Shown here: one piece after another, positions 9,387 through 19,846 of the stretch
How positions within the stretch are numbered: position 1 is the stretch's first letter
Layout: each line of letters opens with the position of its first letter
NCBI GenBank assembly: GCA_020846935.1
Contig: JADLCY010000004.1
Span: forward strand, 84,921-148,920
Origin: Gemmatimonadaceae bacterium
GTDB lineage: Bacteria > Gemmatimonadota > Gemmatimonadetes > Gemmatimonadales > Gemmatimonadaceae
Length of the DNA: 64,000 nucleotides
Direction of reading: 5' to 3'
Notes under the pieces: model-generated
What the model was told of the DNA's origin: nothing
What the model saw: only the letters and a program-made list of their open reading frames with translations
Database searches by the model: none
Translations under genes and position numbers: made by a program

Positions 9387-9902
9387 ATGCTGAAGCTCAT
9401 CCTCGGGCTCCTTGGCACCCTCGTGCTGGCCGTCGCTCTCGTCACCGTGTGGGGTTCCCGACTGCCTCGCGAACATGTGGCATCGCGTGTGCTCCATCTC
9501 GCGCAACCGCGGGACAGCGTCTGGAGCGTGCTCACGGACTACGCCGGCCAGGCCTCGTGGCGTACGGACATCTCCGCGGTGCGCCGCCAGGAGGGCGCGT
9601 CACCGGAGGTATGGGTCGAAACTGGCTCCAACGGTGAAATGCCACTCGCGACGACTGTGAGTGAACCGCCCAGCCGGCTCATACGCACCATCGCGGACTC
9701 GACCCTGCCGTTCGGCGGGTCGTGGACGTATGAGCTGGCCGTTGAGAACGGCGGGACACGGCTCACCATCACCGAAGCGGGCGAGGTCTACCACCCGATC
9801 TTCCGGTTCGTTTCGCACTACTTCATGAGCCCGGCCGGCACCATCGAGGTAGTCATGAAGGCGCTGGCCGCGCGGTTCGGGGAACCGCCGCGGATCGAAT
9901 GA
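9387..9902 (+). CDS. SRPBCC (polyketide cyclase/START-like) domain protein with N-terminal anchor
   Basis: MLKLILGLLGTLVLAVALVTVW forms an anchor helix. VWSVLTDYAGQASW and GSWTYELAVENGGTRLTITE are typical of the SRPBCC fold. Confidence 0.65.
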   Translation: MLKLILGLLGTLVLAVALVTVWGSRLPREHVASRVLHLAQPRDSVWSVLTDYAGQASWRTDISAVRRQEGASPEVWVETGSNGEMPLATTVSEPPSRLIRTIADSTLPFGGSWTYELAVENGGTRLTITEAGEVYHPIFRFVSHYFMSPAGTIEVVMKALAARFGEPPRIE

Positions 9903-9937
9903 GCGGACGGGCTGGCGATTCACCTGCCCGTCCGCTC
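9901..9937. terminator. bidirectional hairpin between convergent SRPBCC and yceI genes
   Basis: A perfect 12-bp stem, GAGCGGACGGGC (9901-9912) / GCCCGTCCGCTC (9926-9937), encloses a 13-nt loop. It starts inside the TGA of the + strand gene and ends 5 nt before the yceI stop. Confidence 0.6.
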
Positions 9938-9941
9938 GGCC

Positions 9942-10469
9942 TCACGCCGCTTTCACGAACTCCGATTCGATCTCGATCTTCACGTCGTTGCCGACGGTAA
10001 GCCCGCCGGTCTCGAGGATCTGGTTCCAGACGAGACCGTAGGCCTCGCGGTTGATCTTGCCGGTGGCGCTGAAGGCCTTGCGATCGTTGCCCCAGGGATC
10101 CTTGATCGCGCCATCGAACTTCGCGTCGAGCACGATTTCGCGCGTGACTCCGCGGATGGTGAGGTTGCCGACGATGCGGAAGTCACCGTTCACATTGCCC
10201 TCGACTCGCGTGCTGACGAAGTCGAGCGTGGGATGATTGTCGGCATCAAAGAAGTCGGCCGAACGCAGGTGCGCGTCACGCTGCTCGGCGCGCGTGTCGA
10301 TAGAACCCGCGTCGATGGAAGCCGTCACACGGGAGTTGGCCGGATTCTGCTCGTCCAGCGAGATCGTCCCCGTGAACGACGCGAACCGACCGCGGACGGT
10401 GGAGATCATGAGGTGTTTCACGGCAAAGCCGACGTTGGTGTGGGTCGGGTCGATGGTCCAGGTCGTCAT
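9942..10469 (-). CDS. yceI: YceI family (polyisoprenoid-binding) protein
   Basis: WTIDPTHTNVGFAVKHLMISTVRGRFASFTG and SIDTRAEQRDAHLRSADFFDADNHP are hallmark YceI motifs. Confidence 0.85.
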   Translation of the reverse strand: MTTWTIDPTHTNVGFAVKHLMISTVRGRFASFTGTISLDEQNPANSRVTASIDAGSIDTRAEQRDAHLRSADFFDADNHPTLDFVSTRVEGNVNGDFRIVGNLTIRGVTREIVLDAKFDGAIKDPWGNDRKAFSATGKINREAYGLVWNQILETGGLTVGNDVKIEIESEFVKAA

Positions 10470-10498
10470 GGCGAGTTGGGTCGGAGGTGCGTCTTATG

Positions 10499-10519
10499 AC
10501 TAAGTAACTTAGTACTAAG
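10499..10519. promoter_or_regulatory. overlapping perfect palindromes about 30-50 nt upstream of the yceI start
   Basis: ACTAAGT-A-ACTTAGT (10499-10513) overlaps the 12-bp perfect palindrome CTTAGTACTAAG (10508-10519). They sit in an isolated AT-rich patch. Confidence 0.4.
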
Positions 10520-10710
10520 ATAATGTCCGGCGCCGACGCCCGCAAGGGCCTCGGCACGCGCTGGGCGCGCACGCGCAGCTGTGGTGCCTGATTCAGGCGG
10601 GATCGCTGCGGCAGGGCCGGAACCACCTCCACGACCAACACACCTTTCCTGGCGGATGATTCGATGCCCCGCGCCTCGGGGCCGAATCGTTCCGCGAAAA
10701 TCCGGTTCCA

Positions 10711-10740
10711 TTGACGCGGGCGTTGGGGCCCGGCTAGGTT
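10711..10740 (+). promoter_or_regulatory. candidate sigma70-type promoter for the Phe leader transcript
   Basis: TTGACG (10711-10716) is followed by 18 nt and then TAGGTT (10735-10740). The leader ATG lies 8 nt downstream of the -10, so the 5' UTR would be very short or absent. Confidence 0.3.
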
Positions 10741-10747
10741 AGGCGCC

Positions 10748-10822
10748 ATGAACGCCGCCGCCCGCCGCGCCTTTTTCTTCAGCTTTAGCCTCCCACACCC
10801 CGGGGAGAACGGCGGCGCGTAG
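10748..10822 (+). CDS. Phe-rich leader peptide (24 aa) of a transcription attenuator
   Basis: The ATG at 10748 through the TAG at 10820-10822 encodes [24 protein letters not shown]. Four Phe codons fall within five consecutive codons (TTT TTC TTC AGC TTT, 10772-10786). The ORF lies upstream of a terminator and a Phe-biosynthesis gene. Confidence 0.65.
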
Positions 10823-10846
10823 GCAGAAGACGCGATCGAGCCCAAA

Positions 10847-10872
10847 CCTCCCCGAGCGGGGAGGTTTTTTTT
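10847..10872 (+). terminator. rho-independent terminator (attenuator segment 3:4)
   Basis: CCTCCCC (10847-10853), loop GAGC and GGGGAGG (10858-10864) are followed by eight T (10865-10872). The structure ends 41 nt before the ATG at 10914. Confidence 0.75.
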
Positions 10873-10913
10873 GTCCCACGGAATCCCGGAACCAGGAACG
10901 GAGCATTTCCCCG

Positions 10914-12923
10914 ATGAGCCAGTCCATACCCGCCCTTGCCGAACTCCGCGAACGCATCGGCGCCCTCGACACGCAGCTGCTCGAACTGCTCGCGCAGCGG
11001 CAGGAGTGCGCCCGGGCGGTGGCCGAGAGCAAACTCGACGCGGCACTGCCCCTCCGCGACACCGAGCGTGAACGCGTGCTCCTGGGGCAACACGCGCAGC
11101 AGGGGCAGGCCCTTGGGCTGAATCCGCGCTTCGTCACCCGGGTGTTCCAGACGCTCATCGAGGAATCGCTCCGCACCCAGCGGCACACGCTGCAACCGCC
11201 TCCCAAGGCAACCAAAGTGGCCGTGCTCGGCGGGGAAGGATCCTACAGCGCGGCAGCTGCCCGGGCGTGCTTTACCGACAGCGACTACCAGATGGTACCC
11301 GGTCAGAAGTTCAGCGACGTGGTACGCCTGCTGCGCCGCGGCGAGGTCGACTACGCGGTCTTGCCGATCGAAAACAGTCTGACGGGTGCGATCAGCGCGG
11401 TGTACGACCTGCTGCGCGACGGCGACCTCTACATCGTGGGAGAGCACTACCTGCCGATCGTCCACAGCCTCCTCGCGCGTCCCGGTGTCACGCTCGGCGC
11501 ACTCCGACGTGTGCACGGTCACCCGCAATCGCTGGCGCAGTGCGAAACGTTCCTGCAGGGCCACGATCTGCTGCTGCACTACTGTGACAGCACGGCCGAG
11601 GCCCTGCGCACGGTGGCAGCGAGCGCCGAGCCCGACGCGGTGGTCGCCGGCGCAGACGCGGGGCGCGCACAGGGCCTGGTGGTGCTCGCCGAGGGCATCG
11701 CCAACGCACGCGAAGTCGAAACGCGCTTCATCGTGCTCGGCCGCGCGCGGGCAGCGGTACAGGAGTCGGTGGCGGCCAAGACGTCGCTGCTCTTCTCCAC
11801 CTGGTCACGCCCCGGCGCCCTGGTCGACGCACTGCAGGTGTTTCGCGATCGCGGGATCAACCTCACCCGCATCGAGTCGCGACCCATGGAGGGCGAGCCG
11901 TGGCAGATGATGTTCTTCGTCGATGCCGAGGGTAACGCAGACAGCAGCCGATTTGCCGAGGCGCTGCATGACGTGGCGCGGTGTACGCGGCTGTTGCGGG
12001 TGCTTGGCTGCTATCCGAACGATCGGGTTCCGCCGACCGACGTCCCGCTGGCGACGGTCGCGCAGTCGGAGGTCGCCGATGTGCCGGCCGCCGCGGCGCC
12101 GGCCGTACCCTCGGCAAAGGCTCCCGTGGCCAACAAGGCGTGGAAGCTCGCGAGCCGCGCACACAAGCCTGACGACACGATCATCGAGATCGGGCGGGCG
12201 CGCATCGGCGGCAACGGGTTCATGGTGATGGCGGGTCCGTGTTCCGTGGAGTCCGAAGGCCAGATCGAGCAGTGCGCCGAGTGGTCGGCGCAGCACGGCG
12301 CAGCGATGCTGCGCGGAGGGTGCTTCAAGCCGCGCACGTCACCCTACGCGTTCCAGGGCCTTGGCCTTCCGGGACTGGCCATGATGAAGGCCGCGGGCCA
12401 ACGCCACGGCCTGCCGATCATCACCGAGGTCATGGCTCCCGAGCAGGTCGACGACATCGCCGCTCAATCCGATGCCCTTCAGATCGGCGCACGCAACATG
12501 CAGAACTTCAGCCTGCTCAAGGCGGTGGGGAGAACGCACCTGCCGGTCCTGCTCAAGCGTGGGTTGATGAGTTCCGTGGACGAGTTGCTGCAGGCGGCCG
12601 AGTACATCCTGGCGGGCGGCAATCAGCAGGTGATGCTGTGCGAGCGCGGCATCCGCACTTTCGAGACGGCGACCCGCAACACCTTGGACCTGAGTGCGGT
12701 ACCCGTGCTCCGGGAGCTCACGCACCTGCCCATCATCGTGGACCCGTCGCACGCCGTGGGCCGTCGCGATCTCGTGGTGCCCATGGCGCTGGCTGCCAAG
12801 GCCGTTGGGGCGCACGGCATCATCGTCGAGTTCCACCCGCAGCCCGAGCAGGCCCTGTCCGACGGCCCGCAGGCGCTGTACTTCGAGCAGTTTGCCCAGA
12901 TGATGCAAAAGCTTCGTAGCTGA
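10914..12923 (+). CDS. pheA: fusion protein: chorismate mutase + prephenate dehydratase + ACT domain (P-protein) + type I-beta DAHP synthase
   Basis: Residues 1-90 form an AroQ-type chorismate mutase ([31 protein letters not shown]). Residues about 101-280 form the prephenate dehydratase ([30 protein letters not shown]). Residues about 289-367 form the ACT domain ([18 protein letters not shown]). Residues about 368-420 are an Ala/Pro-rich linker. Residues about 421-669 form the DAHP synthase ([27 protein letters not shown]). Confidence 0.9.
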
Positions 12924-18613: not shown

Positions 18614-19846
18614 ATGTCCCGTCCCCTTGGCGTTGGCTTCATCGGCTCCGGCTTCAACACGCGCTTTCACATTCAGGGATGGCGTGGTGTGCGCGAGGGC
18701 GACGTGCTCGGCGTGTGGAGCCCGAACGCGAAGAATGCGGCCGACGCGGCAAAGCTGGCCCGTACGCTCGACGTGGGTGCGGCCAGGCCCTACAAGTCGA
18801 TTGCTGACATGGTGTCCGACCCGGCGATCGACGCGATCTGGCTCTGCGGCCCCAACCACGCGCGCATCGAGAACGTGGAGGAGATCGTCGACGCGGTGAA
18901 GCGTGGAAAGGGCGAACTCAAGGGCATTGCGAGCGAGAAACCGCTCGCTCGCAACGTGCAGGAGGCGACGCAGGTCGCGAAGATGGTGGCGTCGGTGGGG
19001 CTGCAGACGGGATACCTGGAAAATCAGCTCTTTGCGCCCCACGTGGAGTACGGCAAGGCGCTGATCTGGGCGCGTGGCGCGGCCACGACCGGTCGGCCCT
19101 ACCTCGCGCGTGCGGCTGAGGAGCACGCGGGGCCCCACGGGCCGTGGTTCTGGCAGGGCAATCTGCAGGGCGGGGGCGTGCTGAACGACATGATGTGCCA
19201 CTCCGCGCTGGTCGTGCGGCACCTGCTCACCAAGCCGGGCGAGCCGCTGTCGACGGTAAAGCCGGTGCGGGTGACGGGCCACATCGCCTCGCTCAAGTGG
19301 ACGCGGCCGCACTACGCGGCCCAGCTCAGGAAGACCATGGGCGCCGACTACACGAAGACGCCGTCGGAGGACTTTGCGAGCGTGATGATCGAGTTCGAGT
19401 CGGCCGACGGGTACCGGATGATCGGTGAGGCGAGCACGTCGTGGAGCTACATCGGCGCCGGCCTGCGCCTCTCGGCGGAACTCCTCGGGCCCGAGTACTC
19501 GATGAAGTGGAACTCGCTCGACAGCGGGCTCCAGCTGTTTTTCTCGCGCGAGGTCAAGGGAAGGGCGGGCGAAGATCTCGTGGAGAAGCAGAACGCGGAG
19601 CAGGGCGTGATGCCGGTGGTGCCCGAGGAGTACCTCGCGTACGGGTACACCGGCGAAGACCGTCACTTTTGCCGCGTGTTTCTGGGGAAGGAGACGGCGC
19701 GACTCACGTTTGACGACGGCGTGGACGTGGTGCGCATGTTGATGACGGCGTACCAGAGCGCCGAGCAGGGAAAGACGCTGGCGTTCCCGCCAAAGGGGAT
19801 CGACCGGTTCGTGCCAGCGGTGGCCAAGGGGGAATGGCGACCGTAG
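18614..19846 (+). CDS. Gfo/Idh/MocA family oxidoreductase
   Basis: The N-terminal Rossmann motif is GVGFIGSGFNTRFH. EKPLARN and the C-terminal alpha/beta domain follow. Confidence 0.8.
   Translation: MSRPLGVGFIGSGFNTRFHIQGWRGVREGDVLGVWSPNAKNAADAAKLARTLDVGAARPYKSIADMVSDPAIDAIWLCGPNHARIENVEEIVDAVKRGKGELKGIASEKPLARNVQEATQVAKMVASVGLQTGYLENQLFAPHVEYGKALIWARGAATTGRPYLARAAEEHAGPHGPWFWQGNLQGGGVLNDMMCHSALVVRHLLTKPGEPLSTVKPVRVTGHIASLKWTRPHYAAQLRKTMGADYTKTPSEDFASVMIEFESADGYRMIGEASTSWSYIGAGLRLSAELLGPEYSMKWNSLDSGLQLFFSREVKGRAGEDLVEKQNAEQGVMPVVPEEYLAYGYTGEDRHFCRVFLGKETARLTFDDGVDVVRMLMTAYQSAEQGKTLAFPPKGIDRFVPAVAKGEWRP

Follow-up and report, generated by a model that had tools for sequence, protein, structure and literature searches.

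A putative pheL-type transcription attenuator upstream of a fused pheA-DAHP synthase gene in Gemmatimonadota

The DNA analyzed here is a 64-kb stretch (the window) of contig JADLCY010000004.1 from a Gemmatimonadaceae bacterium of the phylum Gemmatimonadota. It includes a gene for a fused enzyme of phenylalanine (Phe) biosynthesis, which is preceded by a short Phe-rich open reading frame (ORF), several complementary segments, and an intrinsic terminator. The encoded protein has the Pfam domains CM_2 (chorismate mutase), PDT (prephenate dehydratase), ACT, and DAHP_synth_1, and NCBIfam matches to PRK10622 (6-384/386) and TIGR01361. Over residues 1-376 the protein aligns with the whole of E. coli PheA (42% identity, E 5e-93), and the C-terminal part is a Bacillus-type class I-beta 3-deoxy-D-arabino-heptulosonate 7-phosphate (DAHP) synthase (TIGR01361). 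The initial annotation of this DNA took the gene to be a fused Phe-pathway gene, and its domain composition confirms this. An identical protein, NCBI MCC6317322.1, is recorded for a Gemmatimonadaceae metagenome-assembled genome (MAG).

The leader ORF lies 91 nt upstream of this gene in a promoter-like setting (Table 1) and, as first noted in the initial annotation, has 24 codons with Phe at four of five consecutive positions (FFFSF). The RNA downstream of these codons can pair in mutually exclusive ways. Segment 2 pairs either with segment 1 or with segment 3, the latter as an antiterminator, and segment 3 pairs with segment 4 in a terminator that is followed by a run of eight U, 41 nt upstream of the gene. 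The ORF, the segments, and the T-tract are all found in the sequence at the coordinates first assigned to them. The pairings are also recovered by an independent repeat search (2:3 pairing, 7/7; terminator arms, 11/11) and by a terminator scanner, which gives a stem of 10 bp with 6 G-C pairs and a 4-nt loop ahead of the T-tract. A folding energy of -19.1 kcal/mol is obtained for the final 50 nt of the leader, containing the terminator hairpin and a small 2-bp helix upstream of it. On the comparative evidence given below, the element is very probably a Phe-responsive, ribosome-mediated transcription attenuator.

Table 1. Features of the leader region and the regulated gene (positions in the window)
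Feature	Position	Strand	Remarks
-35-like hexamer TTGACG	10711..10716	+	TTGACn at the equivalent position in 12/12 homologous leaders
-10-like hexamer TAGGTT	10735..10740	+	ends 7 nt before the leader ATG; TAnnnT in 12/12 leaders
pheL-like leader ORF, 24 codons	10748..10822	+	ATG at 10748, stop TAG at 10820-10822
Regulatory codons TTT TTC TTC AGC TTT (F9 F10 F11 S12 F13)	10772..10786	+	Phe codons at 10772-10780 and 10784-10786
Segment 1 CUCCC, 5' arm of the 1:2 hairpin	10790..10794	+	pairs with 10803-10807 in minimum free energy (MFE) and centroid folds
Segment 2 CGGGGAG, pairs with segment 1 or segment 3	10801..10807	+	7/7 complementary to 10848-10854
Segment 3 CCUCCCCG, common to antiterminator (with segment 2) and terminator (with segment 4)	10847..10854	+	part pairing with segment 2 is CTCCCCG, 10848-10854
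Segment 4 GGGGAGG	10858..10864	+	pairs with segment 3 in the terminator
Terminator hairpin AAACCUCCCC-GAGC-GGGGAGGUUU (segments 3:4)	10844..10867	+	terminator scanner
U8 tract	10865..10872	+	only T8 or A8 run in the window
GGAG, Shine-Dalgarno-like, structural gene	10900..10903	+	10 nt before the gene ATG; read from the sequence
PheA (CM-PDT-ACT) fused to class I-beta DAHP synthase, 669 aa	10914..12923	+	Pfam, NCBIfam

These features stand out in a window with a G+C content of 67.5%. A run of at least four Phe in five codons occurs once in its six frames, and Markov simulations expect 0.04 such runs. The T8 run is likewise single when either strand is counted, and three of the 12 copies of CGGGGAG in the window (both strands) lie within 63 nt at the leader. 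The attenuator hairpin with its T-run is the only convincing terminator of this type in the window. Canonical intrinsic terminators are nearly absent here: four candidates of a hairpin with T5 or longer are found on both strands, namely the attenuator terminator, the T-run of the Phe codons itself, and two T5 runs at 19538 (+) and 48328 (-), which are much shorter.

The DNA upstream of the closest homologues of the fused gene (62-80% identity) was compared, together with that of more distant ones. Promoter, leader ORF, segments, and terminator precede every examined homologue of 62-80% identity (loci L001 and L004-L014) in a conserved layout of promoter, Phe-rich ORF, CUCCC/GGGGAG hairpin, GGGGAG/CUCCCC antiterminator, and terminator. 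The same module is found with the distant homologues L016, L024, L097 (Iodidimonas, Alphaproteobacteria), L098 (Aliikangiella, Gammaproteobacteria), and L100. In all, Gemmatimonadota, Gammaproteobacteria, and Alphaproteobacteria yielded at least 13 distinct leaders. Homologous Phe/Tyr-rich leader ORFs exist at L001, L004-L008, L011, L014, L016, L024, L097, L098, and L100. The leader peptides include MISPASPGFFEYANRTRGSL (L001, a Gemmatimonadota MAG), MNTRAHSFFFYFDSPKGRGGR (L004, Permianibacter aggregans cluster), MNTRLQSYFFSFTLQ..GEG (L005 and L007, Permianibacter), MNTRLQSYFFYFTLQRAGEG (L006, Permianibacter), MNAIRTAYFFSFYFPNTRGG.. (L008), MNAVPTLFFFSFYFPRCRGG.. (L011), and (V)TARQAQAFFYFSCPHRWG.. 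(L014). L002 also has a leader ORF (FYFSFYF) and a terminator, but its N-terminus is longer, its 5' end is different, and it has an apparent 5' untranslated region (UTR) of 13 nt.

Across these leaders the Phe/Tyr run is kept and the remaining residues of the peptide drift; the T-rich columns of the Phe codons are among the conserved columns of the leader alignments. The initial annotation had looked to conservation of the Phe run upstream of orthologues, and a Phe/Tyr run is indeed retained in all close homologues and in several distant ones. Segment 2 (GGGGAG) is nearly invariant in 10 leaders, yet its frame relative to the leader ORF differs among the homologues, with all three frames represented. 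It is thus the RNA that is constrained and not the peptide. Segment 3 (CUCCCC) is invariant in 10/10 leaders, and the U-tract is T7-T10 in nine close homologues and T6 in L016. Upstream of the homologue from Melioribacteraceae (L099) the module is absent, as it is from most metagenome fusions of full length and 37-47% identity; L016 (49%) has it. As to the searches themselves, genome contigs searched with a single-protein query gave 3 loci, and metagenome contigs searched with DAHP synthase (DAHPS)-domain peptides gave mostly stand-alone DAHPS genes and no relative of more than 50% identity.

Two of the homologous loci show variants of the upstream region. At the Permianibacter-like locus L007 (1083-1500), an insert of about 418 nt separates the U-tract from the structural gene, compared with 30-104 nt elsewhere; promoter, leader, and terminator are intact despite the insert. 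Upstream of an alphaproteobacterial homologue (50% identity; L003, 61-207) there is an open frame ending in ..LLFFFTFNTMYPLPQQISAALLL*. Its TGA shares bases with the start codon of the structural gene (ATGA), and a terminator is not apparent. This frame may be a translationally coupled variant, or it may be due to chance.

A covariance model (R1) was built from 10 leaders with E. coli excluded. It matches the attenuator of E. coli K-12 pheL over its full length, from ATG to T-run (L095, 200-325; 45.2 bits, E 3.2e-7). In the reverse direction, the Rfam model RF01859 (Phe_leader) gives full-length alignments to the window (28.5 bits, E 0.051) and to L004, L005, and L006 (38.6, 31.0, and 29.1 bits, respectively). 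Because the full-length matches are reciprocal and the regulated gene is homologous to pheA, these comparisons identify the element as a divergent homologue of the gammaproteobacterial pheL-pheA attenuator and not as a mere analogue. The resemblance to the logic of enterobacterial pheL-pheA, pointed out in the initial annotation, is thus borne out by the model match. The present Rfam model misses a branch of the family that includes Permianibacter, Aliikangiella, Iodidimonas, and Gemmatimonadota.

In the proposed mechanism, one switch would control a single gene encoding both the first shikimate enzyme (DAHP synthase) and the enzymes of the Phe branch (chorismate mutase and prephenate dehydratase). 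Transcription would start at 10747/10748, and a ribosome would load on the 5'-terminal AUG without a Shine-Dalgarno (SD) sequence. When Phe is plentiful and tRNA-Phe is charged, this ribosome would run past FFFSF and segment 2 to the stop codon at 10820. The free segment 3 would then pair with segment 4, and RNA polymerase would stop near 10872, in the U8 tract. Without a loaded ribosome, the 1:2 hairpin would form and termination would follow likewise. When Phe is scarce, the ribosome would stall on codons 9-13 and cover segment 1. Segment 2 (CGGGGAG) would then pair with segment 3 (CUCCCCG) before segment 4 is made, so that no terminator forms and the gene is transcribed.

Folding of the leaders was compared with this scheme. 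The RNAalifold consensus of 10 leaders consists of the 1:2 hairpin and the terminator. Four outer terminator pairs have compensatory changes across the homologues, and 0-1 of 500 shuffles match the observed values. Note that in the alignment the 1:2 helix of the window is shifted by 1 nt relative to that of the Permianibacter leaders, so column-wise counts underestimate this helix. When full-length leaders were folded with ribosome masks, the terminator always formed and the states were not discriminated; antitermination must therefore be kinetic. Folds were then made on transcripts cut before segment 4, with the ribosome footprint modeled, as an assumption, by masking the A-site codon and 12 nt downstream. 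All 10 homologues form the 2:3 helix (7-11 bp) when the ribosome is placed on the leading Phe codons. Moving the A site to the last Phe codon shortens the helix to 5 bp or less in L008, L011, and L016. No homologue forms it when the ribosome stands at the stop codon, and segment 3 is then largely free. For the window, segment 1 is covered in the masked folds when the A site is at F13, and without a ribosome the 1:2 hairpin forms and segment 3 is free. The masked folding that had been suggested for this region thus agrees with the ribosome logic in all 10 homologues on cut transcripts, but not on full-length transcripts.

In the MFE fold of the untranslated leader, an extra pairing is seen between 10753-10769 and 10801-10817 (17 nt, 76% complementary). 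It joins the GC-rich leader codons 2-8 to the stretch from the start of segment 2 to 10 nt past its end. This pairing is found in the window only and is not conserved in the homologues. It could strengthen termination of the untranslated leader.

The promoter-like hexamers are as regular as the segments. In all 12 non-E. coli leaders, TTGACn is followed by a non-conserved spacer of 18-19 nt and by TAnnnT, which ends 5-7 nt before the ATG or GTG of the leader ORF. No usable SD sequence is found upstream of the ORF in any of the 12 leaders. The only two tetramer matches lie 1 nt from the ATG (L001) and inside the -10 region (L011). In the window, the 20 nt before the leader ATG contain no SD-like motif, and no in-frame start is found upstream. 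The structural genes of the homologues do carry GGAG or AGGAG upstream, whereas their leader ORFs do not. From this geometry we infer that the transcript starts at the leader AUG or 1 nt before it (10747/10748), which we hold to be fairly likely, and the leader ORF is probably leaderless. The near absence of a 5' UTR, already suspected in the initial annotation, agrees with a predicted promoter whose geometry is kept in 12/12 leaders. A leaderless start is plausible because a functional SD sequence is predicted for only about 22% of Gemmatimonadetes mRNAs (PMC10783764) and because leaderless leader peptides have been mapped in other bacteria.

The fused gene is rare in Gemmatimonadota, and only one other instance (L001) was found in this phylum. 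Outside the gene, the window shares no synteny with L001 or with the other loci. In a neighbor-joining tree and an identity matrix, the two proteins from Gemmatimonadota form the sister group of the P. aggregans cluster and are nested in the Permianibacter clade. They are 75-77% identical to protein P0002, while P0002 is 71-74% identical to the other Permianibacter proteins. For a neighboring symporter, all homologues of more than 70% identity are Gemmatimonad-named; together with the identical MAG protein, this makes the assignment of the host sound. Most likely, the gene and the attenuator were acquired together from a Permianibacter-like gammaproteobacterium, and the occurrence outside Proteobacteria is best explained as transfer of a proteobacterial module. 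The G+C content of the fused gene (67.9%) is fully ameliorated to that of the window. The AT-rich Phe codons, the T8 run, the hexamers, and segments 1-4 are intact, while the N-terminal codons of the leader have become GC-rich Ala and Arg codons. Since the functional parts were kept while the N-terminal codons drifted to GC, the pattern argues that the element is still under purifying selection in its new host.

Some observations weigh against an active attenuator with this origin and start. The -10 hexamer TAGGTT matches TATAAT at only three of six positions, which is below the 4-of-6 rule of the promoter scanner, so it is not called. The window does not reach the gathering threshold of Rfam RF01859 (55 bits, against its score of 28.5). 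The stems are short (1:2, 5 bp; 2:3, 7 bp), and the full-length MFE always favors the terminator. A ribosome with its A site on the first Phe codon may leave segment 1 out of its reach. At L001, the sister locus in Gemmatimonadota, the leader is reduced to FF plus Y and a distance of 5 nt separates the -10 hexamer from the ATG, which suggests that the element may be drifting in Gemmatimonadota. The tree on which the origin was read is a simple neighbor-joining tree without support values. Covariation, which had been put forward as a check on the pairings, is present in the terminator and absent from the 2:3 antiterminator helix, whose six core pairs are invariant across the leaders. Support for 2:3 comes from conservation and geometry. 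It is reported that this region of pheL is frozen, since a change in it would need compensation in the pause, antiterminator, and terminator stems (Gurvich et al., PMC3082878).

Three other explanations were considered. The region might hold an attenuator as described that is not leaderless, with a promoter farther upstream, internal initiation independent of an SD sequence, and hexamers that serve, for example, as the site of a regulator. The weak -10 hexamer, the frequency of SD-independent initiation in Gemmatimonadetes, and the apparent 3-13 nt of 5' UTR in L002 and L016 would fit this. However, the spacing of the two hexamers and their distance to the start are constant in all 12 leaders from three classes or phyla while the spacers vary freely, and the pheL promoter of E. 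coli has the same hexamer pattern. We regard this alternative as possible but rather unlikely. The transferred module might also be a relic that no longer regulates in Gemmatimonadota and acts as a constitutive partial terminator or is read through. The patchy distribution of the gene in the phylum, the lack of synteny between its two loci, the reduced L001 leader, and the scarcity of other canonical intrinsic terminators in the window are in line with such a loss. Against it, the gene has the G+C content of the window, which indicates long residence, yet the functional parts are all intact, and a relic is improbable.

The remaining alternative is that the ribosome plays no part. The hairpin would then be an ordinary terminator, the end of a small RNA, a riboswitch, or a T-box, and the ORF would be fortuitous or encode a functional peptide. 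It is true that translation of the leader ORF is a prediction, and that the unconstrained MFE z-score of the leader is an unremarkable -1.59, although such a value is to be expected of a bistable element. The Phe run, however, has no second instance in the window, and the homologues keep Phe/Tyr codons at this place while other residues change, and the best Rfam match is Phe_leader itself. A riboswitch or T-box was ruled out by the lack of model matches: there is none at E up to 10 in 9500-12000, and no match at gathering level anywhere in the window. The gene upstream (yceI-like, 9942-10469) is on the opposite strand, and the terminator therefore ends no other transcript. A bidirectional terminator was ruled out as well, as only TTT follows the hairpin on the minus strand. 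Altogether a mechanism without the ribosome is very improbable, and a Phe-responsive attenuator read by a translating ribosome is the preferred explanation.

A wider interpretation is that these leaders form an undescribed and widespread pheL-type subfamily in which the starts of transcription and translation coincide, and that this subfamily travels with the trifunctional PheA-DAHPS gene, has crossed from Gammaproteobacteria to Gemmatimonadota, and still functions there. We give this interpretation about an even chance. If it is true, a single Phe-sensing switch gates entry to the whole shikimate pathway, and Phe alone would throttle a DAHP synthase. In E. coli, pheA (by attenuation) and aroG (by TyrR) are controlled separately. 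It would also be the first ribosome-mediated attenuator described in Gemmatimonadota, as far as a text search of the open-access literature shows; the search found nothing linking Gemmatimonadota with leader peptides or attenuation. Textbook pheL attenuation would be extended to this phylum, and current understanding is not overturned. The leaderless start is notable but has precedents.

The fusion of chorismate mutase, prephenate dehydratase, ACT, and DAHPS domains is itself widespread (1790 proteins at E<=1e-20). Named carriers include Bacteroidota, Ignavibacteriota, Bdellovibrionales, Kangiellaceae, and Alphaproteobacteria. The usual annotation, "bifunctional DAHPS/chorismate mutase", leaves out the domain for prephenate dehydratase. 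The annotation of the leader ORF, the terminator, and the gene name could be improved.

Some stand-alone class I-beta DAHPS genes in metagenomes have small ORFs upstream that are rich in all three aromatic residues. Such ORFs are found at L055 (1116-1254), L047 (143-246), L078 (1165-1267), L085 (1193-1323), and L091 (181-310), and further at L041, L065, L082, L090, L040, L057, and L075. Examples are MTSYAVSFFWFRFWRSPELCRG.., MAAFAVSSYWFRFWYWPGSY.., MHRVYAYFWSFRFTGPIP, and MTRFYWFTDPA, and most are followed by a hairpin and a T-run. Among 63 loci, 16 have at least four F/W/Y in 8 residues and 10 of these also have a terminator, compared with 4 and 0 in an antisense control. In several of them, a -10-like hexamer lies 6-9 nt before the ATG. 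These ORFs look like F/W/Y-sensing, possibly leaderless attenuators of the entry enzyme of the common pathway. If the pheL-type leaders do form the subfamily proposed above, the leaderless-looking F/W/Y leaders of stand-alone DAHPS genes would be the same theme.

Other elements were seen near the genes concerned. An AT-rich near-palindrome, TCTTATGACTAAGT-A-ACTTAGTACTAAGA, is located at 10492-10520, just upstream of the divergent yceI-like gene (start at 10469, minus strand). It overlaps the only sigma-70-like promoter call of the scanner (10496-10524) and is a possible operator site for a yceI regulator. A match to SAM_alpha (SAM-II, RF00521) of 38.0 bits, against a gathering threshold of 36, follows closely on the fused gene in L001 (5221-5295). 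Two weaker SAM_alpha matches are found in L002 and none in the window. The usual range of SAM_alpha is alphaproteobacterial, and the L001 match lies outside it.

Of the known systems, E. coli pheL is the closest. Like the leader of the window, it has a Phe-rich leader ORF upstream of a gene for the PheA P-protein, and its segments CUUCCCC, GGGAGG, GCCUCCC, and GGGGGGC, followed by a U-tract, use the same words. Its promoter (TTGACA-18-TACTGT) resembles the TTGACn-18/19-TAnnnT of the window-type leaders. The two differ in the distance from the -10 hexamer to the ATG, which is 25 nt with an AAGGA SD sequence in E. coli and 7 nt without an SD sequence in the window. While the E. coli leader ORF stops before segment 2, that of the window passes through segment 2 and stops 13 nt beyond it. 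There are 4 Phe codons in the window leader and 7 in E. coli pheL. Gurvich et al. (PMC3082878) required at least 5 Phe, a cutoff that the window leader would not pass. The regulated gene of the window has, in addition, a C-terminal DAHP synthase domain that E. coli pheA lacks.

The same survey (Gurvich et al. 2011, PMC3082878) lists pheL genes from Gammaproteobacteria and a small number of candidates from Bacteroides and Desulfobacterium. The second pheL group described there (Vibrio, Shewanella, and a few Bacteroides and Desulfobacterium) is similar to the leaders reported here, by description only, in its variable stop codons and flanks around a conserved Phe run, in a Pro- and pyrimidine-rich stretch that follows the Phe codons and pairs with G residues farther downstream, and in a host range slightly past Gammaproteobacteria. 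That survey does not include Permianibacter, Aliikangiella, Iodidimonas, or Gemmatimonadota, nor leaderless starts or PheA-DAHPS fusions. Control of a DAHP synthase gene by attenuation at aromatic codons has a parallel in Corynebacterium glutamicum, where, according to the summary of Neshat et al. (2014) in PMC11802643, the aroR leader (F-Y-F) attenuates aroF (DAHP synthase) and responds to Phe limitation. As described in that summary, it belongs to another phylum and another DAHPS context, with no PheA fusion.

The leaderless start has parallels in the leader peptides of Deinococcus deserti (14 predicted; PMC4007540), in trpL/rnTrpL of Sinorhizobium meliloti (PMC6614838), and, according to a preprint, in poly-Cys small ORFs of mycobacteria (bioRxiv 10.1101/834739). 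In all of them, as is predicted for the window, the attenuator RNA begins with the AUG or GUG of the leader. The known cases rest on mapped transcription starts, whereas the start in the window is read from promoter geometry. None of these cases, as they are described, is pheL-type or comes from Gemmatimonadota or Gammaproteobacteria. The geometry conserved in the leaders reported here offers a natural test, in bacteria other than Actinobacteria and Deinococcus, of whether transcription and translation can be coupled at an attenuator when a 70S ribosome loads on a 5'-terminal AUG.

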